Virus record (IMG/VR): IMGVR_UViG_3300032516_000003
Coordinates: 129,341 to 193,340 of that record
Length of the DNA stretch: 64,000 nucleotides
Origin: a virus
Direction: 5' to 3' (one strand)
The notes beneath the pieces were generated by a model. It was not told the origin of the DNA, searched no databases, and saw nothing but the letters and a program-made list of their open reading frames with translations. The position numbers and the translations under genes were made by a program. Positions 11,015-31,589 of this stretch are shown here, piece after piece (the stretch's first letter is position 1; the number at the start of each line of letters is the position of its first letter).

Positions 11015-11292
11015 ACCTCGACGGTCTCCGGAGGGTCTTCACTCTGCTGCGGCACGGTGACGCGTTCGAGAAGACGGGCGGGGTGGTGGACGTGGCCAAG
11101 GCCATTCAGCACGGGGCTTCTGCGGCCGGGGAGCGCATGACCCAGGCTGGACACCCCCTACTCGGGTTGGCGACAGCAGTGGCTCCCTTGGCTGGAACTG
11201 CATACGCCGGCAAGAAGGGCTACGAGAAGGTCAAGAGCAAGATCGAGGAGATCAAGTACCGTCGGGCTCTCAAGCGCCAGGGGATGGCATGA
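11011..11292 (+). CDS. Hypothetical protein (93 aa)
   Basis: Translationally coupled (ATGA overlaps) with its neighbours. Confidence 0.4.
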   Translation: MNLDGLRRVFTLLRHGDAFEKTGGVVDVAKAIQHGASAAGERMTQAGHPLLGLATAVAPLAGTAYAGKKGYEKVKSKIEEIKYRRALKRQGMA

Positions 11293-14900: not shown

Positions 14901-15916
14901 TGCAGGGCGATGTGATCCCCTCCTGGTACATCGCGGAGCAGCTGGGCTACAACGACATCGAGGAGCCCAGGGGCCGGTCGATGGTGGGGTGGCGCCTGGA
15001 GAAGGCCGCCTCGGTGGACAGTGTCCGCGCCATCATGGCCAAGAAGGCCGCGCAGAAGAAGGCGGAGATCACCAAGGATGTGACTCCCTCTCAGTTCGGG
15101 GGCAAGGCCACCTCTACTGAGGATGGCTTCCACCCCGATCTGCCGAATGAAGTCCTCGATCAGCTCGGTCACTGCCCGCTGCATGAGGCGCTGTCCACTC
15201 CCGGCACCATGGGGATGGTGCTGAAGCCACACGAGTTCCAACGCATCGTGATCATCCGCATGGGCAAGAAGCCGCTAGCGGATGAACTCGACCAACACCA
15301 TCAAGTGTTCGGTCCTTCGAAGGAGACGTCTCATCTGGCCCCAGTAGGTGGGGAGCACTTCAGCGACGTCATCATGAAGCTCCTGCTTCCGTTCCTGGAG
15401 AACCGCAGCATCCTGGAGCCAGTGGCCAAGCGGCGCATCATCCGCATCTCCATCGGCCAGCAGCAACCAGGTGGTCACCAGCTGGAGGAAGTGAACGACC
15501 CCTTCCTACAGAAGGTCTCTTCTGCGTACAATGGCTACTTGAGTCGTGTGGGCGCTTGCTTGAACTGTGCCCAAGAGCGTATAACGGAAGACGCAGAGCT
15601 CTGGAAGGCCGTGCATCAAGAAGGATTGCCTTCTGGATTCGAGAAGATGGCTGCCGGTGCGAAGGTCGATCCGAAAATCATCATCGGCGCCATGGGAGCA
15701 GCACTGCTACTGAGTCAGCTGGCGAGGTACCGCAAAGAGCAAGCGATGATGGGACAGCGGGAACCAACTGGTCTGTTGAATAACCTGATTGCAGACCACC
15801 CGACCATCCTGACTGCTCTAGCCGGACTCGGGGCGTTGCACCAGCAGGGTTCAGATCTACCTGCTGCGCTGCTGGCGGGGTTGAAGGGCGCCGGGAAGAT
15901 CCTGGTACGCAAGTGA
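11897..15916 (+). CDS. Head-morphogenesis protein with two inteins (extein ~610 aa; portal or prohead-protease candidate)
   Basis: 1339-aa ORF carrying two canonical inteins. Located just upstream of scaffold-like genes and the capsid gene. Extein identity not resolved. Confidence 0.55.
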   Translation: MIKVCQYKAGPGQGDRLVQLFQPGDIEGAAAFFSMGKTAAPMLPEVQQYLDQVKPDHRKISVLVNALGAGEFWGSNINGDHFPEAGLLHEGPDYGFKTFLNAFPFKHHCFPAGTPVLMADRTRRPIEQVRGGEAVMTLDGPRHVIDNMRRHYSGDGIALRLRGEYKELVGTADHQVLIYRRDQIHCRCNYSRLPQSGHEKDCIEYRKAVGDPEWVPMASVFPGDYMVLPKPQHGRELVDGAFARLVGWVAAEGNLGTHGLIQFCFSEHNVEDVSAVTACMVENDLHVTVTARPQDGLVQLSACSARVHAELSKYVVGVLSEKRLTEEVLRWDETGLRQMLGTYIDGDGHLPQSGKNSGQLRIRSSSPQMLRILSDVIRALGHPATVQWDAEPCEMISPTNGEVYMSRGSGVVAVSAEHSSAVAKHSRKRFTRDLRRKRFEKRLGETYLIQVTESEQVMLNEEVFNLEVDDAHHYIAGEVAVHNCNKDPSKSFGRVAVSVWHDQMKRIELVVEIDRELSKRFGAEDVVDKLDRGLFPDVSMGTKVPYDMCSLCTDWINYRRAQSTFDPRVHRTVGQAVLAWHKKQPIRGLSITRNDYCFPPGTPILTANGYYESIEHLAEGDVVISHTGNPRKITRLLPSWSETELVQLEAFGFGDVRATSNHPFLAADLRKPTVGGKSKLLESVEPDWVPAGELTKGMTVFLPVPPVTSDNVQADDLGWLLGMYLAEGHPNFSPGVAWPRATTFTYHINEEFEGRLEKVARLLDQDATVRLSYYDGRQAKSFHINSRKVAEWLLLHGGHGSKNKLLSPAVWSYGAGFVRQLIKGWADGDGSVDGGKFNLRVATSSEQLARQMQLLAAACGVVASLKLYNRTTNFGYQSIWYVSFNGDAADAVQQLREQTESSQQSRLRLWNGYLCSTIYKITTEYYDGPLYNFEVEEDHSYVAGCFAVHNCEHLQRMLNRILPDGRKVYAINDYPRFFDISFVFIGADKTAKVMAKLASVGMQGDVIPSWYIAEQLGYNDIEEPRGRSMVGWRLEKAASVDSVRAIMAKKAAQKKAEITKDVTPSQFGGKATSTEDGFHPDLPNEVLDQLGHCPLHEALSTPGTMGMVLKPHEFQRIVIIRMGKKPLADELDQHHQVFGPSKETSHLAPVGGEHFSDVIMKLLLPFLENRSILEPVAKRRIIRISIGQQQPGGHQLEEVNDPFLQKVSSAYNGYLSRVGACLNCAQERITEDAELWKAVHQEGLPSGFEKMAAGAKVDPKIIIGAMGAALLLSQLARYRKEQAMMGQREPTGLLNNLIADHPTILTALAGLGALHQQGSDLPAALLAGLKGAGKILVRK
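12221..13345 (+). mobile_element. Intein 1 (375 aa) with LAGLIDADG endonuclease domain
   Basis: N-terminus 'HH|CFPAGTPVLM'. C-terminus 'HYIAGEVAVHN|C'. LAGLIDADG motifs 'LVGWVAAEGNL' and 'MLGTYIDGDGHL'. Confidence 0.8.
13685..14746 (+). mobile_element. Intein 2 (354 aa) with LAGLIDADG endonuclease domain
   Basis: N-terminus 'DY|CFPPGTPILT'. C-terminus 'SYVAGCFAVHN|C'. LAGLIDADG motifs 'LLGMYLAEGH' and 'LIKGWADGDGSV'. Confidence 0.8.
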
Positions 15917-16010
15917 TCTCGGTGGATCGCTAGGGGCTTCAAGGCCTCGAAGAAACGGACACCAGAGAGACAAGAAGCACCAACGACCGACCGAGAACAG
16001 GAGACCTACC

Positions 16011-16868
16011 ATGGATGAGCAGCTGGCTCAGATCTACGGAACCAACCAGTCCTACGACGCCGAGGACCTGGAGAAGACGGCGGCAGCCGAGCTCCTGGTC
16101 AAGCTCGCAGAGGAGCAGGGTGTCGACCTGCGCGAGTTCTCCGATGAGGAGATCGCGCAGCTGGTCCAGGAGCTCTACAGCGAGAAGACCGCTGAGGAGA
16201 AGGACGAGAAGAAGGAGCCCCCGAAGGAGGAGAAGAAGGAAGAGAAGAAGGAAGAGGAGGCCAAGGAGAAGGCCGCCGAAGCCGACTTCCTCGGGCGCGT
16301 CATGGCCCACGCCTACGTGCAGGAGCTCAACCAGATCGAGAAGGAAGCGGGCGTCAAGGAGAAGTACGAAGCGGCCAAGGGAGCGGTGGCTGGTGGGGGC
16401 AAGAAGGGGAAGGAGCTTCTGGAGCGTTTCGGCGCCCGCTACAAGCCCTCCGTCGCCGCCGGCAAGGAGGCCGTCAAGGGTGAGCGTCCTGGTGGCCGCA
16501 GCGGCTCCACGCTCTTCCTCACCAAGAAGGAGCGTGCTGGCGCCGCCCTGGAAGCGCTCAAGAAGGCCCCAGGCGAGGTCAAGGCGGTCGGAGCCGCTGG
16601 CCTTGGTGCCGCTGCCTACGAGGCAGGCAAGCACCAGGATGAGAAGCGTGCTGAGGACGAGTCGGCCCTCAAGACCCTCATCGAGAAGCGCGCCTACGAC
16701 ATCCTGGCTGGCAACGGCTGGGTGAACGAGCAGGGCGAAGTGCTCGCCCCGCCGCAGGCCGAGCAGCCGGAGCAGGCCAAGGAAGCGTCGGTCCTGGAGC
16801 AGGCAGTCGAAGTCGAGGCCCTCAAGCTCCTGGAGGCGAACGGGTACCCGGTGGAGTGGAACCAGTAG
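16011..16868 (+). CDS. K/E-rich scaffold / prohead-core-like protein
   Basis: Low-complexity 'EEKDEKKEPPKEEKKEEKKEEEAKEKAAE' with predicted coiled coil. Position before the capsid gene. Confidence 0.45.
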   Translation: MDEQLAQIYGTNQSYDAEDLEKTAAAELLVKLAEEQGVDLREFSDEEIAQLVQELYSEKTAEEKDEKKEPPKEEKKEEKKEEEAKEKAAEADFLGRVMAHAYVQELNQIEKEAGVKEKYEAAKGAVAGGGKKGKELLERFGARYKPSVAAGKEAVKGERPGGRSGSTLFLTKKERAGAALEALKKAPGEVKAVGAAGLGAAAYEAGKHQDEKRAEDESALKTLIEKRAYDILAGNGWVNEQGEVLAPPQAEQPEQAKEASVLEQAVEVEALKLLEANGYPVEWNQ

Positions 16869-16883
16869 CCACTGAGGCACTAG

Positions 16884-17198
16884 GTGTCGGGCATCAACAT
16901 GCAGGCATTCTTCGACGAGCTGGTCAAGATCGGGCAGACACAGGCCCGTGAACCGACCAGCGCCTGGGCGCCCAAGACGATCGGGGCGCCTCGGGCGAAG
17001 CTGCCTGATGCTCAGGTAGCGCGTGCTCCTGAGCCGCCTGGCGCCTTGTCCCCCAAGGTGGTGAAGCCGGCGGGCCAGTACGGGAACCGGCAGAACTACT
17101 CCAAGCCGTACACCGAGTCGTCACCAGCTACGAACCCCGAACAGGGGGAGTCACAACGTCAGGCCCCGATTCCCAACGTCACGTTCGGGGTACGATAG
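16884..17198 (+). CDS. Small protein with N-terminal 'FFDELVKIG' motif
   Basis: Shares the motif and the 14-mer 'ttcttcgacgagct' with ORFs at 26393 and 26893. Candidate capsid-targeting signal. Start may be the internal M (MQAFFDEL). Confidence 0.4.
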   Translation: MSGINMQAFFDELVKIGQTQAREPTSAWAPKTIGAPRAKLPDAQVARAPEPPGALSPKVVKPAGQYGNRQNYSKPYTESSPATNPEQGESQRQAPIPNVTFGVR

Positions 17199-17208
17199 GA
17201 GGACCACG

Positions 17209-18162
17209 ATGCGCTTCTCTCTACAGCAGATGGTCCAGCAGACCCTCGCGGAAGCCACCGAGCGGGAAAAGCTCGCGGCGGCCGAGGGCGCTGCGGCCGA
17301 GAAGGAGCCGGGGCCTTCGGACAAGAAGGAGGAGAAGGAGGAGAAGGAGGGTGTCAAGACCTCCTCGGTGTTCGTCGAGAAGCTGGCGAGCGCCGTCGAG
17401 TACCTCAACTCCGAATTCCTCCCGAAGGTCGCGGAGGAGGGGCTGCAGAACCAGCTGCCCAACACCATGCACTCCCCGACTCCCGGCAAGCAGAACTACG
17501 AGACCGGGCAGGCCAAGCACGACCAGCCCCCACAGCACCCGGGCAAGGACCCCAAGTCGCCCGGCAACACCACCCCAGCCACCTCGCTGGAGACCACCAT
17601 CAAGGATCCACCCGGTGGCAGCGAGAACTGGAAGGGCAAGGACATCCTCAAGCAGTCTTCCGTGGAGCGCGTGAAGGGCATCATGGCCAAGATGGCCGGT
17701 GAAGATGTCCTCCCCGCCCACATCCAGGCCCAGCACAAGGACGTTCCCCCGGATGCGACCAAGTCCGAGGAGGGTGTGCCCAAGCTGCCGGGTCCCGCGG
17801 CCAAGCAGGAGCGGATGATCGACTCCCTCAAGGCCGCGATCGGCTACACCAAGCAGCAGGCGAAGGCGGAACCCAAGGCCCAGATGGGTGAGGTTCTCGA
17901 CGAACCAGCTCAGAAGAAGAGCACGGATCCGGTCCTTCACAACAACCTCGATGCCACGGGCCAGGCCGGCGTGAAGATCTCGTCGGCAGAGAAGTTCGCG
18001 GCAGCGAGGGCTCTCCTCCAGAAGGTAGCGGAGGAGGGAGGAGACAAGGCCGCCAAGCTCCAAGCCCTCATGAAGGAGAAGCACGAGCAGAAGGAGGGCA
18101 AGGAGAAGGACGACCACGAGCACGAGAAGGAAGCTGCGCTTCCTCTCGGCGGCGGATTCTAG
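17209..18162 (+). CDS. Scaffold-like protein (317 aa, K/E/P-rich)
   Basis: Charged low-complexity sequence, coiled-coil segments. GGAGG RBS. Confidence 0.45.
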   Translation: MRFSLQQMVQQTLAEATEREKLAAAEGAAAEKEPGPSDKKEEKEEKEGVKTSSVFVEKLASAVEYLNSEFLPKVAEEGLQNQLPNTMHSPTPGKQNYETGQAKHDQPPQHPGKDPKSPGNTTPATSLETTIKDPPGGSENWKGKDILKQSSVERVKGIMAKMAGEDVLPAHIQAQHKDVPPDATKSEEGVPKLPGPAAKQERMIDSLKAAIGYTKQQAKAEPKAQMGEVLDEPAQKKSTDPVLHNNLDATGQAGVKISSAEKFAAARALLQKVAEEGGDKAAKLQALMKEKHEQKEGKEKDDHEHEKEAALPLGGGF

Positions 18163-18172
18163 GAGGTATGCC

Positions 18173-18568
18173 ATGAGCCAGGAAAAGATCAGCGCCGCAC
18201 AGGCAGCTCAGGTGTACGCCGAGGTCCCGAGTGTCCTCCGGGCACTCTCTGCCGAGAGGGACAGCCTCCAGACCAAGCTCGCGGCGGCGGAGCACCAGAT
18301 CACCGAGTTCAAGACCCGCGACCGCATCGAGAAGATCGCCCACAAGATGGAGGAGAAGCACCTCGACGTGGGCACAAGCTTCGATGACCGTGTGGAGCGG
18401 ATCAAGCAGGCAACGGTCACCGGCCGGAGCCTGGACGTCATCGAGGAGGCGGTCGACATGACGGCTCCTCAGGGCGGACTCGGCAAGCTGGGCAGCGCCA
18501 CGGAGCCCGGCAACGGGGACAGCGGCACCGAGCTGGTGTCCTATCTCTTGGGCGGCCTGGGTGAGTAG
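18173..18568 (+). CDS. Coiled-coil scaffold-like protein (131 aa)
   Basis: AGGAGG RBS. Helical heptad-like sequence. Confidence 0.4.
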   Translation: MSQEKISAAQAAQVYAEVPSVLRALSAERDSLQTKLAAAEHQITEFKTRDRIEKIAHKMEEKHLDVGTSFDDRVERIKQATVTGRSLDVIEEAVDMTAPQGGLGKLGSATEPGNGDSGTELVSYLLGGLGE

Positions 18569-18598
18569 TACCACAAGGACCGAAAGAAGGAGACCGAC

Positions 18599-19045
18599 AT
18601 GATCCACCTCGAACTGACCTCGGATCTCCAGGCCATCATCCGCCGCGACTTCCCGCTGGCGGTGCGCGACCTGGCGAATCCACTGAGCGCGAACCCGCTG
18701 ATCGACGGCGAGTTCATGAACCTCAACACCTCCTACCAGCTGGTCCGCGGCCTTGACGGCTCGCTCGGCTGGGCTGCCTTCGCAGAGCGTGGACGCTTCG
18801 ACGTCCAGGCCCTCGGCAAGGTCACCATCCTGTACCTGATGTCCTACGAAGCGGACACCAAGGTGTACGCCTCGGCCAGTCTCGCCCTCGGTGGCAAGCT
18901 CCAGGTCAAGGCTGGCCTCACCATCGATGGTGTGGCCGGACGCGTCGGCCTGGGGAACTACTCCTCGGGCGAGGTCATCGGGTACGTGACGCGGCTGCCC
19001 GCTGACAACGGGAACAAGCTGCGCTTCATCCAGACCCTGTACTAG
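18599..19045 (+). CDS. Head-associated protein (148 aa), possible decoration/vertex protein
   Basis: Directly upstream of the putative capsid gene. Confidence 0.35.
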   Translation: MIHLELTSDLQAIIRRDFPLAVRDLANPLSANPLIDGEFMNLNTSYQLVRGLDGSLGWAAFAERGRFDVQALGKVTILYLMSYEADTKVYASASLALGGKLQVKAGLTIDGVAGRVGLGNYSSGEVIGYVTRLPADNGNKLRFIQTLY

Positions 19046-19070
19046 GCCGAGAGCCAGAAGGAGAACGAAC

Positions 19071-20189
19071 ATGAGCGTCCCTGCACGCATCCTCAACGAT
19101 CTCTTCACCCAGAAGGTCAACTCGGCCGAGGGCAAGGAGAAGATCGCGGAGTACGCCGGCAGCTACATCCGGGACCGTCTGCGTGAGGTCTCGTACGCCC
19201 GCAAGATCCTGCCCCCACAGCAGGTGACCCGGGCGGACTGCCAGCGGTCCGTCAACCATGACACGCTGGTCAAGATCGTGGACGTCGAGCCCAAGAGCCG
19301 GGCGATGGCGATCACGTTCCGTGGCCAGCCCACGGCCCACTTCGTGCGCGCACCCCGTGCCGAGGTTGCCTTCTTCACGATCTCCTCGGAGAAGTTCGAG
19401 AAGACCGAGCAGGAGCTCCTCGCCTACGAGATGCCGGTCACGAAGGTCATCGAAGACAACACCGTCAAGGACATCCAGGAGATCGAGGACCGCGAGTTCA
19501 CGATCCACATCGAAGCCGCCGTCCAGGCCCTGCAGTACGAGGCCAACGGTGGCGCGACCGTCAACCTCAACGCCTCCGGCATCCAGGCCGGCTCGGTGGT
19601 CGAGTTCGCCGTGCGCAAGGGCGAGCTGGCCCGTGCGGCCTCGGCGGACAACGGCACGGTCCTGCCGGTGCAGCGTCCCGACTTCGTCAACCTCTTCAAG
19701 ATGATCGACGGTCACCGCCTGCGGGCGGAGATGGTCCTCATCACCGAGGTCGACTGGGACGACATCCTCCAGTGGACGCTGGAGGACTTCGGCGACAAGA
19801 TCCAGTCCGAGACCACCGTCGACGGGTACAAGTACAACCTGCTGCTCGGCCGGCAGTACACCCGCACGGTCAAGACGGACATCCTCCGTCCGGGCAACAT
19901 CTACTGCTTCACCAACCCGGACTTCTTCGGCCGGTTCTACATCCTCAACAACACCAAGTTCTACATCGACAAGATCGCGAACCTGATCACCTGGCAGTCC
20001 TGGGAGGACATCGCCATGGCGGTCATCAACATCGCGTCGGTGCGGAAGCTGGAGCTGTACTCGGGCTCGGCGACGACCAACCACGACAGCATCCTTGCCG
20101 CGGTGTCGCCGATGGCCGAGGAGGACCTCGGTGCAGAGAACAACCGGGTCGACTCGGGACTCGTGTTCCCGTCGATCGAGGTGTACTAG
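19071..20189 (+). CDS. Putative major capsid protein (372 aa)
   Basis: Follows scaffold-like genes. GGAG RBS. Followed by a strong 14-bp-stem terminator. Size fits an HK97-fold capsid protein. The antisense 461-aa ORF is rejected. Confidence 0.5.
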   Translation: MSVPARILNDLFTQKVNSAEGKEKIAEYAGSYIRDRLREVSYARKILPPQQVTRADCQRSVNHDTLVKIVDVEPKSRAMAITFRGQPTAHFVRAPRAEVAFFTISSEKFEKTEQELLAYEMPVTKVIEDNTVKDIQEIEDREFTIHIEAAVQALQYEANGGATVNLNASGIQAGSVVEFAVRKGELARAASADNGTVLPVQRPDFVNLFKMIDGHRLRAEMVLITEVDWDDILQWTLEDFGDKIQSETTVDGYKYNLLLGRQYTRTVKTDILRPGNIYCFTNPDFFGRFYILNNTKFYIDKIANLITWQSWEDIAMAVINIASVRKLELYSGSATTNHDSILAAVSPMAEEDLGAENNRVDSGLVFPSIEVY

Positions 20190-20228
20190 TCCTCTGGCTG
20201 GTGCTCTAGTAGCGACCTGAGTCTGAGA

Positions 20229-20268
20229 GGGCGCCAGGCGTCGCAAGGCGTCTGGCGCCCTTTCCTTT
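20229..20268 (+). terminator. Rho-independent terminator after the capsid gene
   Basis: 14-bp GC-rich stem (gggcgccaggcgtc / ggcgtctggcgccc), loop gcaa, then tttccttt. Confidence 0.6.
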
Positions 20269-20279
20269 AGGAGGACCAA

Positions 20280-20870
20280 ATGGCTGGGACCAAGCAGTAC
20301 CAACTGGCGATCGCCGACAAGCGGCACAACCCGCTCAGCACCAATCCGAAGCACGCCACCAGCCCCAACTTCCACGTGGGGAACCTCCGGCTGATGAAGG
20401 GCCAGTGGCACACCGTCAACGAGTGGTGGTATCTCAAGAACCAGGCACTCATCAAGAAGTACCTGGACCAGGGCCAGATCGTAGTCAAGTGCCCCGACGG
20501 CAGCGTCCTGGGTCAGGGTGTGGCAGCGCCATCGCTGCCGCCCGAGGCAATGGCCATTCCGGTGCTGGTAGAGCCTACGCCTACCGTGAAGGCAGAAGTG
20601 CCAGCTCCCGCTCCAGAGTCGCTGGAGTACCCGACGGAGTACCCGACGGAGAAGTCAGAGGAGCCAGCTCCACCCGAGCTCCTGGTCAAGAAGGACGACC
20701 TCAGCGTCCTGCCGCTGAAGGAGAACAAGCTCAAGAAGCTGCAGACGATGGCTGAGACCTTCGCGCAGGTCGTGAGTATGGATGTGTCCGGCCTGGTGGA
20801 ACAGCTCAACATCTCCCCGGCGCAAGCTGAGAAGGTGTTGGCGGCTGCTCAGTCCCGGCTGGGAGGCTAG
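20280..20870 (+). CDS. Hypothetical protein (196 aa)
   Basis: GGAGG RBS. Coding composition. Confidence 0.45.
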   Translation: MAGTKQYQLAIADKRHNPLSTNPKHATSPNFHVGNLRLMKGQWHTVNEWWYLKNQALIKKYLDQGQIVVKCPDGSVLGQGVAAPSLPPEAMAIPVLVEPTPTVKAEVPAPAPESLEYPTEYPTEKSEEPAPPELLVKKDDLSVLPLKENKLKKLQTMAETFAQVVSMDVSGLVEQLNISPAQAEKVLAAAQSRLGG

Positions 20871-20872
20871 CC

Positions 20873-21163
20873 ATGCCCACAGTGGACAATCTGACACCCG
20901 AGGGCATCACGCTGATGCGGTGGCGGTCGCTGCCGAACAGCTGCGTCTGGGTCGATCCCCGGGGTCGGCAGATGCGTGACGTCCCGGCCCACATCGCCTA
21001 CAGCGACTTGGCCAAGTCGCTAGCCAACCAGGGGAGTCTGCGTATCGAGGGCTACTCCCCGCCTGGCTCGGAACCGGTGGTCCACACTCCCCACGAAGCT
21101 GTCACCAATGGTACAGTCTCTGGAGAGCGTCGGGACAAGAGGACTCGTAGGCAGGAGCGATGA
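20873..21163 (+). CDS. Hypothetical protein (96 aa)
   Basis: Tightly packed with neighbours. Confidence 0.35.
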   Translation: MPTVDNLTPEGITLMRWRSLPNSCVWVDPRGRQMRDVPAHIAYSDLAKSLANQGSLRIEGYSPPGSEPVVHTPHEAVTNGTVSGERRDKRTRRQER

Positions 21164-21675
21164 CCCAGCAGCTACAGGGCCTGGATGGCATTCCTGGGGT
21201 GAGCGACACCTTCAACTCGTTCATCCAGACGGTGCGCCTCTTCATGCGGGATCACCCCCAGCTCAACCGGCTGATCAAGGGTGAGGAATCCTCAGACCGG
21301 ATGGTTGCCTGGGGCATCCTGGACTTTCTCAGCGACTTCGCGGGGACGCCTCCGGACCTGGGCTTCTTCCCGCTGGACCAGCTGCTGGAGCGCCACCTGC
21401 AGTCCTTCGCCGTGCGAGGAACTGCCTGTGCGCTGATGCAGTCGGTGGGCATCCTGATGACCAGGAACCACCTTCCCTTCTCCGACGGCGGGATCTCCGT
21501 GGCTGTCAACGACAAGGCGCCGCAGATGATGGCCTGGATCCGCGACATGCAGTCGAAGTACGAGCAGCAGAAGGTGCAGATCAAGGTCGCGATGAACATC
21601 AGCCAGATCCTGGGGTCATTCAGCGGATGTCACTCGGAACTATTCTTCGTGAATGGCTGGTATGGGATATACTAG
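21160..21675 (+). CDS. Hypothetical protein (171 aa)
   Basis: ATGA overlap with the upstream ORF. Confidence 0.4.
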   Translation: MTQQLQGLDGIPGVSDTFNSFIQTVRLFMRDHPQLNRLIKGEESSDRMVAWGILDFLSDFAGTPPDLGFFPLDQLLERHLQSFAVRGTACALMQSVGILMTRNHLPFSDGGISVAVNDKAPQMMAWIRDMQSKYEQQKVQIKVAMNISQILGSFSGCHSELFFVNGWYGIY

Positions 21676-21754
21676 TTTCATGTTGACAACGGACAGTCAG
21701 CTGGAGCAAACTGACTCATGGAGGTGGCATAAGCAAGCCACTAGGAGGTTATCC

Positions 21755-22684
21755 ATGGGTCGGCCACGAGTACTAGACCACGAAGAGATCGTTCGCCTGT
21801 ACCAAGAGAACAAGACCACTGAGGAGATAGGTCAACTGGTGGGCTGTAGTGGACGTCAGGTACGGGAAGTAGTGAGCAGCAGGAACATTCCAAAGCGGTC
21901 TGGGCACCGGAAGAACACGTTGGATCACGTAGCCATCATAGAGGCGTACGAGTCCGGCAAATCAGCGGAGCAGGTAGCGACAGAATTTAGCTGCTCCAAG
22001 GCCGGTGTCTGGCACATTCTCGCCTTGCATGGTGTGCCTACCAGAGAGGGCGCCAAGCGCCACACCACACAAGAACGGCTCGGCTTCGAGCCTACTGTTG
22101 TGTGGTTGCAACGCGAGCTGGACAAGCACCAGACCGCCGCTGCAGTAGCTAGGGCCAATGACATCCCCTACGGCACCTTGATCGAGTGGATGATGAAGCT
22201 AGGAGTAGGGCGTCCAGTCTGGCGTGGTGGGCCGGGTCCGGCAGGCAGTCCTGTCAGGCAGGACATCCCGATCAAGGAAGCCATCGAGCTGTCTAAGAGT
22301 GGGGTGGTCTACCGGGTGCTGGCCAACAAATACAATGTTTCCTACGGTGTGATCGTGCGTCGTATGAAAGAGGCTAGTCACCGGGCACCAAGGGACAAGC
22401 ACCGCAAACACCCGACTGACGTGCCCTATGCCAATGCGCCGTACCAGCACCGCAAGATCATGCACGAACTTGGCATCATCAAGTGTGAGATCTGTGGTGA
22501 GGGCAGGGCACTGGATTTCTGCCACATCGTGGCACGCAAGAATGGCGGACCAACCGCGAAGGAGAACTGCCTCGTGTTGTGTCCGCTTCACCATCGGCTG
22601 TACGATACCGACAAGCTGGACGTTGGCGAGAGCGCCACCATCTGCCGCAAGGTTCGTAAAGCGAGGAAGCTGTACTGTAGCTGA
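21755..22684 (+). CDS. HNH homing endonuclease with N-terminal repeated HTH modules
   Basis: C-terminal 'CEICGEGRALDFCHIVARKNGG...CLVLCPLHHRLYD' HNH motif. Three resolvase-like HTH repeats. AGGAGG RBS before the ATG at 21755. Confidence 0.7.
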   Translation: MGRPRVLDHEEIVRLYQENKTTEEIGQLVGCSGRQVREVVSSRNIPKRSGHRKNTLDHVAIIEAYESGKSAEQVATEFSCSKAGVWHILALHGVPTREGAKRHTTQERLGFEPTVVWLQRELDKHQTAAAVARANDIPYGTLIEWMMKLGVGRPVWRGGPGPAGSPVRQDIPIKEAIELSKSGVVYRVLANKYNVSYGVIVRRMKEASHRAPRDKHRKHPTDVPYANAPYQHRKIMHELGIIKCEICGEGRALDFCHIVARKNGGPTAKENCLVLCPLHHRLYDTDKLDVGESATICRKVRKARKLYCS

Positions 22685-22731
22685 TCAATGGATGCCCATG
22701 CGGCATCTTTAGCTAGTAGACGGAGGCCGTC

Positions 22732-23169
22732 ATGGCAATCGTGTTCAAGCAGTTCAACTCGGCCCAGGAACTGGTCGACTACCTGAACGACATCGTGCTG
22801 ACGAAGAATCTGCCGATGAAGGTCATGGGACTCGCTGGCCTGACGCTGATCCTCACCGCCGGCACGGTCACCTTCGTCGATGCCACGGGGGAAGGTCTGA
22901 CGCTGGTGCAGATCGTGACCCAGATCAATGCGGTGGTGGCTGATGCCGTCGCCCTGCGCAACTACGGTCACATGCAGTCACCACCCCAGGGTCAGGTGGC
23001 TCTGATCAAGGCGGCTCAGGTCATCGACAAGGATGGCACGGCCAACTCGCTGCTGGGCCTGTCTACCGCGGCGGACGTCACCATCGGGGCCAACGCAGTG
23101 GCCAAGACCGACATCGCGCAGATCACAAGCGACGCCAACGGCAGCCGCTTCTCCGTGTTCCACGAGTAG
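22732..23169 (+). CDS. Hypothetical virion protein (145 aa)
   Basis: Coding composition. No recognisable motif. Confidence 0.4.
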   Translation: MAIVFKQFNSAQELVDYLNDIVLTKNLPMKVMGLAGLTLILTAGTVTFVDATGEGLTLVQIVTQINAVVADAVALRNYGHMQSPPQGQVALIKAAQVIDKDGTANSLLGLSTAADVTIGANAVAKTDIAQITSDANGSRFSVFHE

Positions 23170-23179
23170 GAGACCAGCC

Positions 23180-24808
23180 ATGAGTGAGCAGCTCTACGAG
23201 CTCCTGTCTGACGGTGACGGCATCCCGTGGATCAAGCGGGCCGAGCACTTCGTGATGCTCAAGGTGGCCTCTGGCGGCGTCCTACCCGGGGAGCTGGAAG
23301 AGTACCTTGCGCTCTGCAAGCATGCCGCCGAAGTTCATCCAGCCTCTTCTGACAAGGGAGAGGTAGCGGACGCGGCGAAGAAGGGCCTGCTCAACGCCAT
23401 CCGCAGCACGGTGTCTTCCGATGTCGCCCAGGTGCGGAAGACCGAGCGCACCCGGGGAGCCCGGGTCGGCAAGGAAGTCGGCACGGTGAGCGGGGCACTG
23501 GCTGGCCTGCTGGCCGGGCGGAGGCATGGTGTCGGCGGCGCCGCCCTGGGGGCCGCCCTTGGTGGCGTGGGTGGTCGCGGTGCTGGCAAGGTGGTCGGCG
23601 AGGAGATCGATCGAGCCAAGATCAAGAAGGACTACGACAAGAAGGGCTCGATGGAGAAGACCACCGGCTTCGACGACGACGACACGGCGAAGCTGGCGGC
23701 CGAGAAGGAGAAGCCTGACAAGCGCTACCCCATCGCGGGTGCCACGATCGGTGCTGCCACCGGGGCCACGGCCAAGATCCTCAGCAAGGCCAAGAAGTAT
23801 CGCGACGCCTCAGAGATGGCCGACATGGTCGCCTCGGGGCTAGAGAAGATCCGCCAGAGCCATCCGTCCGGCTCTCCGGCGGCAGCCGCGCTGGGTGACA
23901 AGATCACGAAGATCCGGCAGGCCGTGGGCAAGAAGCCCTCAGCTCTGCATGAAGGCGCCAAGGGTGGTGCTGTGGGTATGGTCGGGGGTCTGTTGGCTGG
24001 AGCCGGGATTGACAAGGTTCGGCGTGTGCTTCGTGAGAGGAAGATGAAGAAGCATGCCGGCATTGCCATGCCGCCTACTGGACCAGGCCCCGACGAGATG
24101 TTGTCCGAGAAGCTCCACCAGCAAGAGATGGTTCCCGATCAGGGGGCCGAGCAGCAAGTGGCGCAGGAGAATGCCCTGGGTGAGTTCCTTACTGCCCAGC
24201 AGCAGGCCAACGAGGCCGAGTTCTTCCGGCAGATGGCGGAAGAGGCCAAGTCCCAGGCCGAGATGGCTTCGGCTGAGAACCAGAACCTGCAGCAGCAGGT
24301 CGGCATGCTGCAGCAGCAGACCCAGCAGGCGCAGATGGGCGCGCAGCAAGAGTCCATGATGGCCCAGCAGACGGCCCAGCAGGCCTCGCAGGATGCCATG
24401 ATGGCCCGCAACGAGTCCATGCAGGCCCAGCAGTCGGCGATCTCTTTGCGCGCGGCGGTCACCAACTACCGCCAGGCGCTGATGGATCTGCTGGCGCAGG
24501 ACCCGACGCAGCAGGTCCCGCCGCCAGTACCACCGCAGGGACCGATGCCTCCCGGCCCAGGGGCTGCCCCCGGCGCCGCGCCTGGAGCTCCTCCCGGAGC
24601 GCCTCCGGCTGAGGCCGGCCCACCGCCTGGACCAGAAGCGGGTGGACCCCCGGCGCCGGCAGGAGGGCCACCAGAGATGATGGCTCCGCCCCCGATGCCT
24701 GGCATGCCGCCGGCAGGTGGGCCTCCCATGGGTGGACCCCCGGCGCCACCAGCTGAGCCCAAGGCTCCCGCGGCTCCCAAGCCCAAGGCCCCGGCCAAGA
24801 AGGAGTGA
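23180..24808 (+). CDS. Protein with Q-rich coiled coil and ~100-aa Pro/Gly/Ala-rich C-terminal tail
   Basis: TAGGAGACC RBS. Start adjusted from ORF 23033 to the in-frame ATG at 23180. Glycine-zipper-like N-terminal segment. Confidence 0.5.
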   Translation: MSEQLYELLSDGDGIPWIKRAEHFVMLKVASGGVLPGELEEYLALCKHAAEVHPASSDKGEVADAAKKGLLNAIRSTVSSDVAQVRKTERTRGARVGKEVGTVSGALAGLLAGRRHGVGGAALGAALGGVGGRGAGKVVGEEIDRAKIKKDYDKKGSMEKTTGFDDDDTAKLAAEKEKPDKRYPIAGATIGAATGATAKILSKAKKYRDASEMADMVASGLEKIRQSHPSGSPAAAALGDKITKIRQAVGKKPSALHEGAKGGAVGMVGGLLAGAGIDKVRRVLRERKMKKHAGIAMPPTGPGPDEMLSEKLHQQEMVPDQGAEQQVAQENALGEFLTAQQQANEAEFFRQMAEEAKSQAEMASAENQNLQQQVGMLQQQTQQAQMGAQQESMMAQQTAQQASQDAMMARNESMQAQQSAISLRAAVTNYRQALMDLLAQDPTQQVPPPVPPQGPMPPGPGAAPGAAPGAPPGAPPAEAGPPPGPEAGGPPAPAGGPPEMMAPPPMPGMPPAGGPPMGGPPAPPAEPKAPAAPKPKAPAKKE

Positions 24809-24811
24809 TCG

Positions 24812-25501
24812 ATGAGCAACTTCCTGAAGAAGCTGTACGACGAAGAGATGTCTAAGGTGGGCTCGACCGAGTTCTCCTCGATCATGGAAGCCCTACCACG
24901 CACGGAGCTGGAAGACTACCTCGGCCTGGGCAAGCGCGCCTCCGAAGAGCAGCCTTCAGATGATGAGAAGCGCAAGATGCAGGCCGGTGCGAAGGCCAAG
25001 CCGGAGGCCAAGGGCCAGGATGTGGAGCCCGAGACCAACCTGCAGGCCAAGCAGGCATCGGTCCAGCGGGTGCTCGGAGTGATGCAGAAGCTGGCTGTCG
25101 GTGGCCCGCCCGAGGTCCCGCTGCCTGACTCGGCCAAGGGTCTCCAGGCCAAGCAGGACGCCATCCACAAGGGAGTCCAGTCTGGCGAGGGCCAGAAGGT
25201 CACCGTGCCCGTCGACCACCAGGGCCCCGGCAAGGAGGCCATCGAGGTCGAGCGTGGCGGCAAGAAGGTCACCACCACCAAGACAGCCATGGCCTGGGCC
25301 GACGACATGGGCCGCAAGCTGGCCGCGGCCAAGCTCAAGACGGCCTACGGGCCTGAGCCGGCCGAGCAGCAGGGCAGCACAGTCGATGCCACCGAGAAGG
25401 CCAAGGTTGCCATGATGGCCTTCCAGTCCACGCGCCACGCTCCTGAGAACATCCAGCAGGCGGCGATCAAGCTGGCTGGCATGAAGATCGCTGGAGCCTA
25501 G
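24812..25501 (+). CDS. Hypothetical protein (229 aa)
   Basis: Coding composition. Confidence 0.45.
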   Translation: MSNFLKKLYDEEMSKVGSTEFSSIMEALPRTELEDYLGLGKRASEEQPSDDEKRKMQAGAKAKPEAKGQDVEPETNLQAKQASVQRVLGVMQKLAVGGPPEVPLPDSAKGLQAKQDAIHKGVQSGEGQKVTVPVDHQGPGKEAIEVERGGKKVTTTKTAMAWADDMGRKLAAAKLKTAYGPEPAEQQGSTVDATEKAKVAMMAFQSTRHAPENIQQAAIKLAGMKIAGA

Positions 25502-26403
25502 TGCCCAACCTCGCCTTCAAGAACCTCCTCGTGAGGTCCTTCTCCCTCGATTTCCAGGAGTTCACCTGGGAGATTGAGGACACGGATGTCGATCCCCACG
25601 ACTTCCTGTGCTACATCCTGCGCAGTGAGTCGCCGATGGGCCCGTGGGATATCATCGCCGGGCCCTTCGAGGACAAGTACCGCTTCGTCGACAACCGCGT
25701 CAACCTGCTGCATCGGTGGCGCCAGATCTACTACCGGGTTCGCAGCGTCCGGAAGGCAGACGTCACCGATGTCGCCGAGTCGGAGGCCGCCACTCAGACC
25801 GCCGAGCCGGACCTCATCGCGGAAGAGATCCAACGACTGGAGCGACTGCTATGGCAAGAGTTCTCCGGACGTCGCTGCTTCATCTTCCCGGCCCGCAGTT
25901 TCGGGCAGCGGTGCGGCAACTGCTACGACGGGCCCGACAAGGGCCGGGGCTTCACCTCTCAACGGCGACGCTCGAACTGCTTGACCTGCTACGACACGGG
26001 TTTCGTGCGGGGCTACTTCGATCCGATCGAGATATTCATGCAGATCGATCCGTCACCCAACACCATCCAGAACCTGCCCATTGCCGAGCGGCATACCCAG
26101 GACACCAGTGCCCGGCTGCCGAACTTTCCCATCGTCAAGCCCCGCGATGTCATCGTTGAAGCCGAGAACAAGCGGTGGCGGGTGGTGAGGGTGACGGCGA
26201 CGGAGCGGCTGCGGTCGGTGGTTCATCAGGAGCTGATCCTCCACGCCATCAACATTGGGGACATCGAGTACCAGCTTCCCATCCGACTCGACAATCTGCG
26301 AGACTTCGAGCCAAGCCCGGTGCGCAACTTCATCAATGCCCAGAACCTGGAGAGCTTCGAGAACGAGGCCCTTCGTCATGCACTGGTGATCTATGGACCA
26401 TGA
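25501..26403 (+). CDS. Hypothetical neck/head-completion candidate (300 aa)
   Basis: Position between head and tail modules. Confidence 0.4.
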   Translation: MPNLAFKNLLVRSFSLDFQEFTWEIEDTDVDPHDFLCYILRSESPMGPWDIIAGPFEDKYRFVDNRVNLLHRWRQIYYRVRSVRKADVTDVAESEAATQTAEPDLIAEEIQRLERLLWQEFSGRRCFIFPARSFGQRCGNCYDGPDKGRGFTSQRRRSNCLTCYDTGFVRGYFDPIEIFMQIDPSPNTIQNLPIAERHTQDTSARLPNFPIVKPRDVIVEAENKRWRVVRVTATERLRSVVHQELILHAINIGDIEYQLPIRLDNLRDFEPSPVRNFINAQNLESFENEALRHALVIYGP

Positions 26404-26893
26404 ACAGATGAGAGGGTTCTTCGACGAGCTCGAAAAGATCGGGATGTCAAAGAACGTGGCCAAGCAACTGGCCCGTATTGCCGATCTGCCGAGCGCAGTG
26501 GGCAAGAACATCAGCCCGATCAAGCTGAAGGCAGTCAAGTCTCGGGTGGCTGCTCGTGAGCTGGGGCAGCAGGCATCCACGGAGCTCGCCACGGCGAAGA
26601 AGCTCGGCCTGCCTGCTCAAGTTGCGGGACAGGCCGAGGGTCAGCTGCCGAAGATCTACGCTGGGGACCCAGCGCACATATCGTACGGCCCACGACAGCA
26701 GCTGGCCGCCAGTGCCGAGAGCGCGCAGTGGGGGCGTGAGGCGCGGAATTTCAGCCGGCCAGCCATGGAGGGTAAGGTCAGGACGTACCGTAACCTCCAG
26801 CCGAGGCAACCGGGCTACTTCGGGGCACCGATGTCCAGTCCCAACCTGGATTCGAATGCGGTCCGAGACGCTGCCTATGGAGCCCACGGCTAA
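26393..26893 (+). CDS. Protein with N-terminal 'FFDELEKIG' motif (166 aa)
   Basis: Paralogous N-terminus with ORFs at 16884 and 26893. Confidence 0.45.
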   Translation: MDHEQMRGFFDELEKIGMSKNVAKQLARIADLPSAVGKNISPIKLKAVKSRVAARELGQQASTELATAKKLGLPAQVAGQAEGQLPKIYAGDPAHISYGPRQQLAASAESAQWGREARNFSRPAMEGKVRTYRNLQPRQPGYFGAPMSSPNLDSNAVRDAAYGAHG

Positions 26894-27315
26894 TGCTGCC
26901 CGCGGCCACATACGATAGCTTCTTCGACGAGCTGACGAAGATTGCAGCAGCTCAGGAGTACCTGCAGGAACGCGGCTTCGAGCAGGAGAAGAACTCTGAT
27001 GGCGTCCCGGAGCGCCAGGGCTTCATCACCAAGAAGAAGCTCAAGCAGCTGGCCATCATGCTCCCAGTGGCGGCCGCCGGCGCTGGTCTGGGCGTGGCTT
27101 CCGGTAAGGCAATTCGCGGCTACTTGAGAAGCCCTCATGCAGCCAAGTCACTCCTGGCATTCGAACGGCAGCACCCCAAGGTGGGGCCCCTCCTGGTTCG
27201 TGGCGTGCCTCCAGCGGCCCTGGCAGCGGGCACTCTGGCAGCAGGCCTCGGGGTCATGAGGACCAAGAAGGTGAAGGACTGGATCGAGGGACGGCATGAA
27301 GGCGCCCGACCCTAG
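26893..27315 (+). CDS. Protein with N-terminal 'FFDELTKIA' motif (140 aa), C-terminal TM/glycine-zipper
   Basis: Third copy of the motif. Confidence 0.45.
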   Translation: MLPAATYDSFFDELTKIAAAQEYLQERGFEQEKNSDGVPERQGFITKKKLKQLAIMLPVAAAGAGLGVASGKAIRGYLRSPHAAKSLLAFERQHPKVGPLLVRGVPPAALAAGTLAAGLGVMRTKKVKDWIEGRHEGARP

Positions 27316-28135
27316 CAGCTCGATTCCCAGCGCTGATCCGCTGGAGATGTCGTGGCTCAACGACCCGTTGAACTACGCCATCAAGTGCTTCATTGCCTTC
27401 TTGCAGACCATCTTCGAGAAGGCTCCACAGCGGGCCTTCCACTGGAGCTCGGACTTCAAGATCACAGAGATTGTGATCACGGAGGAGAACCCAGTCAACG
27501 TGGAATCCATCGAGCGCAAGCCAGTCATCTCGGTGGTCGAAGGCCCCGTCCGGTTCAGTGGCACCAGCCTCGATGAGATGGTCAAACAGGATGCAACCAC
27601 GGGGGAGGAGTTCCATACGGACCTTCTACCAGGTACTATGTCTCTGAACTGCATGTCGCGGGTGCGACAAGAGGCTCGGTTCCTGGCATGGATCTCGGCG
27701 CGTACCATCTGGAACCTGCGGAAGCTCTTCATCCGCGAGACCTACTTCCAGGAGGTGGGACGGAACATCACCATCGGCTCGGTGACTCCGGCCGGCGCGC
27801 TGGTGACGGGAGACACGGAAGGCGAGTGGCACGCCTGCACGGTGAGCTGCCCGTTCTTCCTCCAGTGGTCCGACACCGTTACGCCACTGACGAAAGACTG
27901 GAGCGGTTCACCGATCCAGACACTGCAGAAGATCGAAGCGAGAATCCGAACCGACGGGGGTGGAATCGCCACCAGGATGGCTCCATTACCGCGGATGCGG
28001 GAAGACCCCCGCTACTGGGGTACGCGCGCCAGGCCGCCACGCATCCGCGGGCGGTTGATTCAACAACAACAGCCCGAGCCCGAACCGGATCCGAGCGAGA
28101 AGAGCGAACCGATCCACCAGGGGTTCAAGGTCTAG
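27296..28135 (+). CDS. Putative tail-completion / sheath-initiator protein (279 aa)
   Basis: Immediately upstream of the sheath gene. Confidence 0.35.
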   Translation: MKAPDPSSSIPSADPLEMSWLNDPLNYAIKCFIAFLQTIFEKAPQRAFHWSSDFKITEIVITEENPVNVESIERKPVISVVEGPVRFSGTSLDEMVKQDATTGEEFHTDLLPGTMSLNCMSRVRQEARFLAWISARTIWNLRKLFIRETYFQEVGRNITIGSVTPAGALVTGDTEGEWHACTVSCPFFLQWSDTVTPLTKDWSGSPIQTLQKIEARIRTDGGGIATRMAPLPRMREDPRYWGTRARPPRIRGRLIQQQQPEPEPDPSEKSEPIHQGFKV

Positions 28136-28147
28136 TGAAGGAGGCCC

Positions 28148-31100
28148 GTGATGGCTACTGAGTTGCTGCGACCAGGCGTAGAGATCATCCAGGAGTTCCG
28201 TACGGTCAGTCCGACCGTCGTCACTCCCACGCTGGTGCCGTGCGCTGTGGGTCCGGCATTCCAGATTCTGGAGGCGTTGAAGACCGACGCCACGGGCAAC
28301 CGCGTGCTCAACACCGATGCAGTGGCCTCGGTCGCTGCGGTGCTGACGGCGGCCAACCCCGGCCTCTACACCGGGTTGGATGGCCTGAAGCTGCAGGTGA
28401 GCATCAACGGCGGGCCGACGCAGGAGTTCACCTTCTCCGACCCGACCGCGGCTGGTCTGAGCGCGGGGCAGGTGAAGGACCAGATCGCAGCGGCCACGGT
28501 GCCACCTTCTGGCTTCGGCGCCTACGTCTCCACCTTGGGTGGGTCGAGCTACCTCCAGCTCCGCTCGACGGGCTCGGGCGATGGCCAGACCCTGAAGGTG
28601 CTGACGGGCTCGGCGAACACCATTCTCGGCTTCGCCAGCAACGTGATCGCCGAGGGGTGCTCCACCTATCAGCAGGCCAAGGTGCGGATCGAGCAGCTGA
28701 TGTTCCCTGACCCACGGGGCATCATCGAAGAGCTCGACATCGACGAGGACAGCATTCGGGTCTTCATCAACACCGGGGCTGCGCTCAAGGAAGTGCTACG
28801 CACCAGCACCTTCTTGCGCAAGAAGAAGAGCTGCCGCTACACTGGTGGCATCATCTCCTTCCCGTTGACTGGCTTGACCGGGAAGAAGTTCTCCTACAAG
28901 GAAAGCGCGAACGGCACCGCCCAGACGTTCACGTTCGTTTCCGACCCGGCCGATGTGGCTGCCCTCGCGACGGCCATGAATGCCCTCATCGGCTCGACCA
29001 AGGTCTACGTCAACGGCTCGACCAAGATCGACTTCGTGAGCTCGGCTGGTCTCTTCGAGGTCGTGACGCCGGCAGCGGACACGGCCCACGCGATGATCGG
29101 CTGGACCAATGGCGCCAAGGCCTGGACGCTGGAGGTGGTCGACACGGGTGATGGCACGACCAAGTCGGTGTTCGTGATCGTGGATGAGGACAACTTCTCG
29201 GCCGCGGCCGGCGCCGCCCAGCTCCTCGGCACGGCGACCATCAGCTCGCCCATCAACGTCCACAACAAGACCCTCCAGTGTGCCGTCAATGGCGACCACG
29301 TGCAGGAGGTCATCTTCGATGGCGGCCCCATCATTCCAGGCACCGCCTTCGATGGGGTTGCGATCGGAACCCTGGTCCTCAACCTGTTGGTCAACGGCGC
29401 GGCCAAGGTGGTCACGTTCAGCACCGGTCCCGACCTGACCATCGCCCAGGCGATCGCCGAGATCAACGCCGCGGCCGGAACGACCGTATGCTACCGGTCG
29501 AACTCGACTGGCGTCTCACAGCCCACCACCGGTACGTTCATCGCCTTCCAGGTCGGGGGGGCCACGACAGTCGCTGGTGGCTCAATCGTGGCCGTCTACG
29601 CCAGCTCCACGGCCTGGGCGAAGATGGGCTTCGCCGGCACCGTTGACATCGCGCAGACCAACACCCTGACGGAGATCATCACCCAGTTGAACGCCACCTT
29701 CGGCACCGGCTTCGCGGTCAACGCGACCAACAAGCTGCAGCTCAACTCGCTGACCACGGGTGACGAGTCCAAGCTGGAGATCTTCAGCGGCACGGCCAAC
29801 ACCCTGCTCGGATTCACTCAGGGGCAGGTCGGCAATGGCGCTCCCTTCCCACCGGCCGTCGGCGATGCGCTCTACGGCGACGGCTCGCTGGTGGGCTACG
29901 TGGTCCAGGTGGCCCCTGGTGGCTACACCAACCGGCTGAAGCTCGATCGGAAGGTGGCGCTCGACTACGGTGCCGCGGCCATGTACGTCGAGGCCATGGG
30001 CCTCGTCACGCCGCTGCCAGCCAACCGGCCCACGCCGGATCTGGTGGTGGACCTGAGCGGTGCGGTCACGGTCAAGAACGACATCCTCCGCAACACCGAG
30101 GGCACGCCGATCGTGGCCACTGGCTCGCTGGTGCTCTCGTACAAGGCGCTCCGTCTGGACGTCTCGTCCGGGGCGGATGAACCGGCCCTGCTGAACCTGT
30201 CGGACACCACGGACCTGGATGATGCGCTGGAGCCGGTGAACGCCGACAACCCGCTGGCTCTGCAGCTCTACTTCGCACTGATCAATGCCACTGGCATCAC
30301 CGTGGCGGGCATCGGTGTGGATGCAGTCAGCGCGGGCAATCCGGATGGCACGCCTGAGGCCTACTCGCGGGCGTGCAGCTTCCTGCAGGCGCAGGAGGTC
30401 TACGCTCTGGCGCCATGCAGCCAAGATCCCACGGTCCACCAGATCTTCTCAACCCACGTCACCTCGATGTCGGAGCCGGACAACAAGGGCGAGCGGATCG
30501 TCCTCATCTGCCCGGAGATGCCGGGCGAGGCGATTCCGAAGCTTGCCACCAGCGGCACGGATGGCGACAGCACGGCCACGACCAACGAGTTCGACACCAA
30601 GGTTCCGTCCCTGGCCACGGACGTGCTCAACGCCGGGGTCAACCCGGTGGGCACCATCCCGGTCAGCTCCGGGCTGTACCTGACGATCACGACGAACACC
30701 AAGCGCTACAACATCAGCGCGCTCAGCAGCACCAAGATCACCATCCGGGTGGCCTTCTCCCCCGGTGAGAACGACGACGACTTCTACGCCGAGGACAACC
30801 TGCCCGGTGACCTGCTCTCCGAGACCTTCGCGATCAAGGTCCGTGGCGAGGAGCTGGTCGACTCGAACGGCAAGCCGGACTACGAGAAGATCGCACAGGC
30901 CTACCAGGACCTGGGCAAGAGCTACGGCAACCGCCGCGTCATCATGGTGGCCCCGGAGCTGGTCGGCGCCAATGTGGACGGCACCGAGCAGAAGCTCAAG
31001 GGCTACTACCTGTGCGGCGCCGTCGCCGGCATGATCGGCCGGCTGCCACCGCAGCAGGGCTTCACCAACTACCCGGTCACCGGGTTCACCCGGGTGTTCG

Positions 31101-31519: not shown

Positions 31520-31589
31520 CAAGTGTTAGGTTAGACGGATGATCGCACAAACACAGATCAACGGTATAAGGCATAGCGGAGGAAGAGCT

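Follow-up and report, generated by a model that had tools for sequence, protein, structure and literature searches.

An N-terminal ten-residue motif shared by unrelated proteins in the structural operons of an uncultured phage group: a candidate virion-loading tag

In bacteriophage T4 a capsid-targeting sequence (CTS) loads internal proteins into the scaffolding core of the prohead, and these proteins are ejected with the DNA (PMC3012670). The T4 internal proteins IPII and IPIII have an identical start, MKTYQEFIAEA, on unrelated bodies. Here we describe a ten-residue motif of the FFDEL-x-KI type (the tag; for example MQAFFDELVKIGQTQ) that stands near the N-terminus of three proteins encoded in a stretch of 64,000 nt, referred to below as the window (positions 129,341-193,340 of IMG/VR record IMGVR_UViG_3300032516_000003). 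The window belongs to a 193,704-bp metagenomic contig, and the source phage is an uncultured, contractile-tailed phage of about 194 kb.

The tag resembles the CTS of IPI, IPII and IPIII in being an N-terminal sequence of about ten residues that is the sole part common to unrelated proteins. The two have no sequence similarity, and a profile hidden Markov model (HMM) of the tag, built from 106 instances, found no match on IPII or IPIII. Unlike the T4 CTS, the tag is sometimes internal or repeated, and it occurs in a far more diverse phage group and on many more cargo families.

Very few loading signals are known from phages other than T4. Encapsulin cargo-loading peptides are short terminal peptides, usually C-terminal, which dock unrelated cargo in an HK97-fold shell encoded nearby; they differ from the tag in consensus and in that usual position, and encapsulins are non-viral compartments. 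N-terminal markers also define the payload set of contractile machines, examples being the N-terminal regions of payloads of Photorhabdus virulence cassettes (PVC) and other extracellular contractile injection systems (eCIS) and the MIX motifs of type VI secretion. However, the PVC regions are longer and poorly conserved, the MIX motifs are different, and the machine, which contains no DNA, takes up its payload in the tube or spike. The Prp-cleaved leader ...LNLQFF/A (slash, cleavage site), present on ribosomal protein L27 and on capsid and scaffold proteins of some Firmicute phages, is like the tag a short N-terminal leader with an FF pair shared by several virion proteins, but its motif is another one and is modelled on a host protein; nothing cellular corresponds to the FFDEL tag. 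Phage proteins that are carried in the particle and injected serve as early weapons in anti-defence, host takeover and channel formation, and can hardly ever be recognised from sequence. The tag would be a signal of this known kind in a new, sequence-unrelated form, from an uncultured phage group.

The motif and its copies in the window

The 14-mer TTCTTCGACGAGCT occurs exactly three times in the window (16908-16921, 26417-26430 and 26920-26933), always on the + strand and always encoding FFDEL close to the start of a + strand open reading frame (ORF); with up to two mismatches allowed, one further match was found in the window, and it was unrelated. A six-frame regular-expression search and the motif HMM agreed on three copies in the 64 kb, at 23-25 bits, the runner-up scoring 1.9 bits. 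Both searches thus bear out the ORF starts ...FFDELVKIG, ...FFDELEKIG and ...FFDELTKIA that had been picked out in an earlier, sequence-only reading of this DNA. The copies and the genes that carry them, together with a fourth tagged gene that ends in the window, are as follows.

16905-16934, + strand: tag copy 1, AFFDELVKIG (motif HMM 22.9 bits)
16899-17198, + strand: tagged protein 1 (family A), 99 residues from ATG 16899; start at GTG 16884 in the ORF list
26414-26443, + strand: tag copy 2, GFFDELEKIG (24.6 bits)
26393-26893, + strand: tagged protein 2, 166 residues (ATG 26393) or 161 residues (ATG 26408), a cargo singleton
26917-26946, + strand: tag copy 3, SFFDELTKIA (25.0 bits)
26893-27315, + strand: tagged protein 3 (family B), 140 residues; tag, charged linker, two hydrophobic segments and basic C-terminus
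1-108, + strand: 3' end (35 codons and stop) of a fourth tagged ORF, 112 residues, beginning MIENFEAVTESFIDELEKIGSTLG...; 9659-9997 in locus L216

From amino-acid frequencies, FFDEL.KI would be expected 8.6e-5 times in six frames, against the three observed. The tag lies 3-9 residues past a plausible ATG in each of the three window ORFs, and outside the motif neither the three proteins nor their DNA can be aligned. All three ORFs have a coding-like pattern of G+C content by codon position, that of the third (GC3, 0.75-0.77) exceeding that of the first and the first that of the second, a pattern absent from the antisense ORFs overlapping them. The sequence-only reading had also drawn attention to the shared 14-mer, which is indeed exact in all three genes. 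It carries no separate meaning: with the codon usage of this genome (TTC 91%, GAC 68%, GAG 78%, CTN 91%) the probability that any FFDEL is written as exactly TTCTTCGACGAGCT is about 0.39 per copy, so that codon bias explains the identity and the DNA adds nothing to the identity of the peptides. Two look-alikes, in the ORFs at 24812-25501 (LYDEEMSKVG) and 11289-11900 (VEEFLKTAG), received no support from the HMM.

In tagged protein 1 the N-terminal tag is followed by a Pro-rich, conserved but non-globular chain ending ...PNVTFGVR. A homologue search with 16884-17198 gave five close relatives only. Family A was found in 23 non-redundant relatives, syntenic between homologues of the portal-side gene w16011 and of w17209, with a start M-x-A-F-[FW]-[DE]-E-L in which the motif begins at residue 3-4; across these relatives the protein has 82-147 residues, is Pro-rich and conserved over its whole length, and ends in PPPNVVFGVR. 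An AlphaFold2 model of family A (six sequences) has a helix at residues 2-14 only, the rest being coil, at low confidence (predicted local distance difference test score, pLDDT, 58).

The gene for tagged protein 2 overlaps by its start the stop of 25501-26403 (ATGGACCATGA) and by its stop the start of the next gene (TAATG), and a homologue search with the protein returned nothing beyond itself or near-identical copies. Tagged protein 3 has Gly/Ala-rich hydrophobic segments at 27049-27105 and 27202-27258 (Kyte-Doolittle 19-residue peaks of 1.74 and 1.42). Its two hydrophobic segments and basic tail recall the build of a holin; the gene stands among structural genes, and no lysis gene was recognised among its neighbours in Pfam and PHROG scans. 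Family B has 17 non-redundant homologues, always encoded just upstream of a w27296 homologue and the sheath gene. None of the three window proteins has a Pfam or PHROG domain. The fourth ORF starts 231 nt upstream of the window (position 9890 of L216 being window position 1), carries the variant tag SFIDELEKIG (11 bits) about 190 nt upstream of the window, and has a glycine-zipper C-terminus; the 84 kb of this genome that were examined thus hold at least four copies of the tag.

Conservation and cargo of the tag in related phages

Relatives were retrieved independently of the motif, with the major capsid protein as query. The search yielded 329 related loci in IMG/VR, and the 80 best (72-90% identical, contigs of at most 195 kb) were retained; among all relatives fetched, capsid identity ranged from 35 to 90% and contigs reached about 210 kb. 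The loci retrieved in this way carry the tag again, on the + strand and in syntenic places, and the motif pointed out in the sequence-only reading is thus kept in homologues. The consensus derived from 73 non-redundant instances reads [AGS]-F-[FWY]-[DE]-E-L-x-K-[IVLM]-[AGS]. The charged residues D, E and K are conserved at 90-100%, position -1 is A, G or S in 98% of instances although it lay outside the search pattern, and 56 of the 73 stand 2-12 residues after an ATG. Synonymous codons vary freely in the motif-independent relatives (TTC/TTT 19:13, GAT/GAC 16:16, all six Leu codons) while the residues stay fixed, E, L and K without exception, which points to selection on the peptide; the tag is under purifying selection at the peptide level.

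Pattern scans of IMG/VR yielded many more copies, in large contigs of moderate to high G+C content. The pooled fetched loci contain 110 non-redundant instances, 98 of them N-terminal, and these fall on 59 cargo clusters without mutual BLAST similarity. The number of copies per genome runs from three to at least nine, with at least six in a second genome. Where a locus contains structural genes as well as the tag, its capsid protein is between 86% and 35% identical, and the tag is therefore old within the group. Taken together, the tag is real, N-terminal and modular, is limited to this phage group, and lies in tight late structural operons.

At least nine tandem tagged ORFs with unrelated bodies were seen in L096, L133 and L139 (IMGVR_UViG_3300045125_000140). 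The tagged ORFs of IMGVR_UViG_3300045125_000140 share a 15-residue leader, MNxFE[FY]GFFDEL-x-KIA, and a tenth is degenerate, MNSFERTFMREFVKIAED; the shared MNxFE[FY]G part suggests concerted evolution or an exchange of 5'-end tags within the genome. In a distant subclade (L057, L060, L066, L067, L069, L071 and L043) the N-terminus of family B, encoded between the w25501 and w27296 homologues, reads LFxYLP....LxK[LIM]A in place of FFDEL-x-KIA, so that of the tag just the terminal L-x-K-[LI]-A is left. The string LFxYLP...LxKLA was considered as an alternative shared tag of this subclade and rejected, being found on that single gene only.

A 44-column motif profile searched against a database of 5.8 billion proteins gave one marginal match, and a three-sequence profile searched against 1.84 billion representatives gave four, one of which, P0009, bears three tags. 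In 185,579 cellular genomes the pattern is all but missing: a scan gave 12 matches, almost all of them out of frame, non-coding or due to chance. The sole cellular-genome record with two good copies is contig CALFEQ010000011.1 (L202) of a Myxococcales metagenome-assembled genome; it is probably a phage contig binned into that assembly and could hint at a host. The tag was found neither around the InPase gene of Tunturi_5 nor in a polyvalent protein of a Rhizobium phage, and a full-text literature search for FFDEL-type strings returned no relevant description. FFDELDKIS strings in giant-virus contigs were excluded as the Walker B motif of AAA+ ATPases (..IFFDELDKIS..). The letters FFDEL-x-KI are identical there, but the Walker B strings lie deep in ATPases of 430-730 residues, with a hydrophobic residue at position -1 and in low-G+C contigs, whereas the tags lie at the N-termini of non-ATPase proteins of 60-370 residues.

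The cargo of the relatives matches, in Pfam, InPase (PF18823, 2e-43), HNH_3, DUF5661 and DUF6321, and further includes glycine-zipper proteins with two transmembrane segments and HExxH proteins. One tagged family of the relatives, family C, which is absent from the window, has an invariant AHELGH and a downstream E..AS and so resembles a zincin-type peptidase; no significant database, peptidase or PDB sequence match was obtained for it. Internal tags occur at module junctions: L029 has two in one ORF, L083 has an InPase domain and a tag, a fused ORF of L096 combines DUF5661, a tag and a glycine zipper, and P0009 has three copies in 315 residues.

The InPase domain has been argued to be a likely virion-packaged domain of polyvalent proteins (Iyer et al. 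2017, PMC5512222), and in cultured phages it sits in proteins mostly annotated as minor head proteins or in large polyvalent-type proteins. The polyvalent and MuF effectors (PMC5512222) share with the present loci the InPase domain PF18823, a zincin-like HExxH module, head-gene neighbours and a predicted delivery to the host. Unlike the MuF- or portal-fused polyvalent proteins, the tagged proteins are mostly small and separately encoded, each with its short tag. A polyvalent protein strings together a number of disparate domains, as a rule with a MuF, portal or MPTase module; the tagged relatives mostly consist of a single module, and a few are fused. Cargo of the polyvalent repertoire was found in the relatives and not in the window.

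Genomic setting and possible functions of the tag

The genes among which the tagged genes of the window lie include the following.

11897-15916, + strand: portal-like gene with two intein-type insertions
16011-16868, + strand: w16011, conserved acidic head-module protein with an internal tag-like helix
18173-18568, + strand: scaffold-like protein (weak Phage_scaffold match alone)
19071-20189, + strand: major capsid protein
25501-26403, + strand: w25501, conserved 300-residue protein of the structural module
27296-28135, + strand: w27296, conserved 279-residue protein, sharing 20 nt with the 3' end of the gene for tagged protein 3; followed by the sheath gene
28148-31519, + strand: tail sheath (phrog_279, 1.4e-15)

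The order is portal, w16011, tagged protein 1, w17209, scaffold-like protein, 18599-19045 and capsid, and, beyond the capsid gene, 24812-25501, w25501, tagged proteins 2 and 3, w27296 and sheath. As their start and stop codons overlap the adjacent genes, tagged genes 2 and 3 would be co-expressed with structural genes. In relatives, tagged ORFs come after the w25501 homologue even where the capsid protein is just 35% identical, and in L153 they flank a portal gene of a different type. Neither a gp22-type core protein nor a gp21-type prohead protease was recognised here, the head module having been searched for protease families with PHROGs and Pfam, which divergent proteins could escape. PDB sequence searches with w17209, w25501, w27296 and w10094 gave no significant match, and megablast of 16000-28200 against 50,697 phage records found none.

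By analogy with T4, the tag may be a portable virion-loading signal, like the CTS in use and unrelated to it in sequence, a reading to which we give about as much credence as doubt. It is favoured because a single N-terminal label stands on dozens of unrelated proteins, in structural operons, and on cargo of kinds that are packaged elsewhere. Taken as a helix, the tag has a strongly amphipathic character, its hydrophobic moment being 1.5-1.9 at 100 degrees versus 0.2-0.8 at 160 degrees, and the fixation of both its hydrophobic (F, F, L, I) and its charged (D, E, K) residues argues for a specific partner. The phage would place this ten-residue amphipathic helix on many unrelated proteins of its late structural operons; the helix would dock them onto a common partner in the assembling particle, such as a scaffold-like core, the portal or the capsid interior, and the docked proteins would become part of the virion and so reach the next host. 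Glycine-zipper cargoes, including the product of 26893-27315, might then be ejected proteins that insert into membranes, and the enzyme-like cargoes of relatives injected effectors. Incorporation into the virion, a docking partner and any later cleavage of the tag are all inferred. The sequence-only reading had likened the motif to the signals of T4 internal proteins, and the likeness holds in form (a short signal shared by unrelated proteins of at least 59 families, in head and neck operons) and fails in sequence.

Several observations weigh against virion loading. Two of the three tagged genes of the window adjoin the sheath gene and not the capsid gene, and the fourth adjoins a gene whose product has weak baseplate-hub-like matches, so that by gene position a tail or neck destination is equally compatible. 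Several internal tags stand at module junctions, which suits a processing site at least as well, and many cargoes resemble membrane proteins, which could act in the infected cell instead. No partner was identified, and the single-sequence AlphaFold2 model of w25501 reached a pLDDT of just 31.6. No cultured relative with the tag was found; the nearest cultured capsid protein, that of Salmonella phage Arash, is 27% identical, and the 31 kb fetched around that capsid gene contain no copy of the tag.

A tag-like helix in w16011 bears on the possible partner. It comprises residues 100-111 (nt 16308-16343, AEADFLGRVMAHAYVQELNQIEK), with the family consensus AEADFLGRvMAHaYVqELxxIxK, and a local hhalign comparison between the tag profile and the w16011 family gave P = 1e-4 at a probability of 57%. 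Of 42 non-identical w16011 homologues, 17 still show a tag-like EL-x-KI-[AGS], and their loci all lack a downstream family A gene. In 20 others the K and the small residue are gone, and every one of these has family A downstream. The reciprocal pattern is suggestive only, for it follows two subclades and may be a single event. The w16011 helix may, judging from these sequences, be the origin of the tag or its docking partner. A fuller version, in which the tag is the loading signal of widespread, uncultured large myoviruses of soil and freshwater, imitates a docking helix in w16011, seen as a scaffold-like head protein, and makes the packaged set readable from sequence, is possible but on the whole doubtful.

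The main rival of virion loading is a role as a proteolytic processing site, alone or in addition. The motif would then serve chiefly as a propeptide or junction site, cut by a protease of the phage or of its host, rather than for targeting, a view we hold to be unlikely as it stands; the two roles could coexist, as they do in the T4 CTS. The internal copies at module boundaries in the fused ORFs of L029, L096, L083 and P0009 fit such a site, as does the zincin-like appearance of family C (AHELGH, E..AS), and [FWY]-[DE]-E followed by L formally suits a 'hydrophobic-x-Glu' rule such as that of T4 gp21. However, the family A motif starts at residue 3-4, which leaves almost nothing upstream to remove, the ten consecutive conserved positions of the tag are more than prohead-protease sites typically need, PHROGs and Pfam revealed no prohead protease family in the head module, and family C lies outside the window and lacks a significant peptidase match.

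Slightly less probable is a destination other than the capsid interior, whether the neck, the tail lumen or the baseplate, with loading as for the payloads of contractile injection systems, or a membrane complex of the infected cell that serves lysis, exclusion or assembly. Copies 2 and 3 do have a conserved gene on either side, just ahead of the sheath gene, the fourth copy is followed by a gene whose product has weak baseplate-hub- and lysozyme-like PHROG matches, and many cargoes are holin-like, with two Gly/Ala-rich hydrophobic segments and a basic tail. On the other hand, tagged ORFs, those of family A among them, are located between the portal and capsid genes or beside portals, the annotations of InPase carriers in cultured phages point to heads, and a membrane complex is ill suited to soluble cargoes of enzyme type (InPase, HNH_3).

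We consider it very unlikely that the helix is a generic self-association or coiled-coil element, or the remnant of one old family, with no sorting role. Such short helices are common, and the likeness to the w16011 helix makes homotypic packing conceivable, but the near-invariance of D, E and K and the almost constant N-terminal position argue against a generic element, and several distinct Pfam domains among the 59 cargo clusters make a single diverged family impossible. Lastly, chance together with codon bias, or a DNA- or RNA-level element such as a recombination site or regulatory sequence, is effectively refuted by the expectation count, the HMM scan and the free variation of codons in a motif that is always in frame, at ORF starts and on the coding strand, even though codon bias does account for the 14-nt identity itself and shared tag-coding DNA at 5' ends could incidentally promote cassette exchange.

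Further features of the phage and significance of the tag

The portal-like gene (11897-15916, + strand) encodes 1339 residues, as against 574-941 (mostly fewer than 670) in relatives, with a Hom_end_hint match near residue 109 and a Hint_2 match near residue 597, the latter with LAGLIDADG_3 at 817-868. The terminase large subunit, encoded in the window at 6013-8955 (+ strand), carries an insert and has 980 residues versus 628 in one relative. Free-standing nuclease genes, all on the + strand, break up the structural module at 21653-22684, 3441-3962 and 31539-32261. The first encodes 343 residues with an HNH-type C-terminal motif by eye; it is missing from 12 mapped relatives, in which the flanking genes adjoin, and has a 45%-identical match in one other locus, L082. 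The other two are endonuclease VII-like ORFs, one near the terminase gene and one after the sheath gene.

Two large low-complexity proteins are encoded between the capsid and neck genes, at 23180-24808 and 24812-25501 (both + strand). The former contains several hydrophobic stretches rich in Gly and Ala and one rich in Q, ends in a Pro-rich C-terminus, and looks like an internal or ejection protein; it does not carry the FFDEL tag. At 57611-60193 (- strand) an ORF of 860 residues (GC3 0.92) has Pfam matches to MVP_shoulder and, weakly, to Vault repeats, which suggests a phage-encoded protein resembling the major vault protein. Upstream of the window start (1-10 kb; L216 1-9030) lies a gene for a 2391-residue fusion of RNA polymerase beta and beta' types with a LAGLIDADG insert, preceded by an intein-bearing ORF of 1951 residues; the phage thus encodes its own multisubunit RNA polymerase beside the structural module.

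Should the tag prove to be a virion-loading signal, a one-line sequence rule would flag the injected proteome of a whole uncultured phage group. The packaged and ejected set would become readable from genomes, with dozens of unrelated families, 4-10 per genome and many of them of unknown function, and the tag could be used as a compact means of bringing foreign proteins into capsids. Even with the tail or a membrane as its destination, a ten-residue label on about 60 unrelated proteins would define a new functional gene set.

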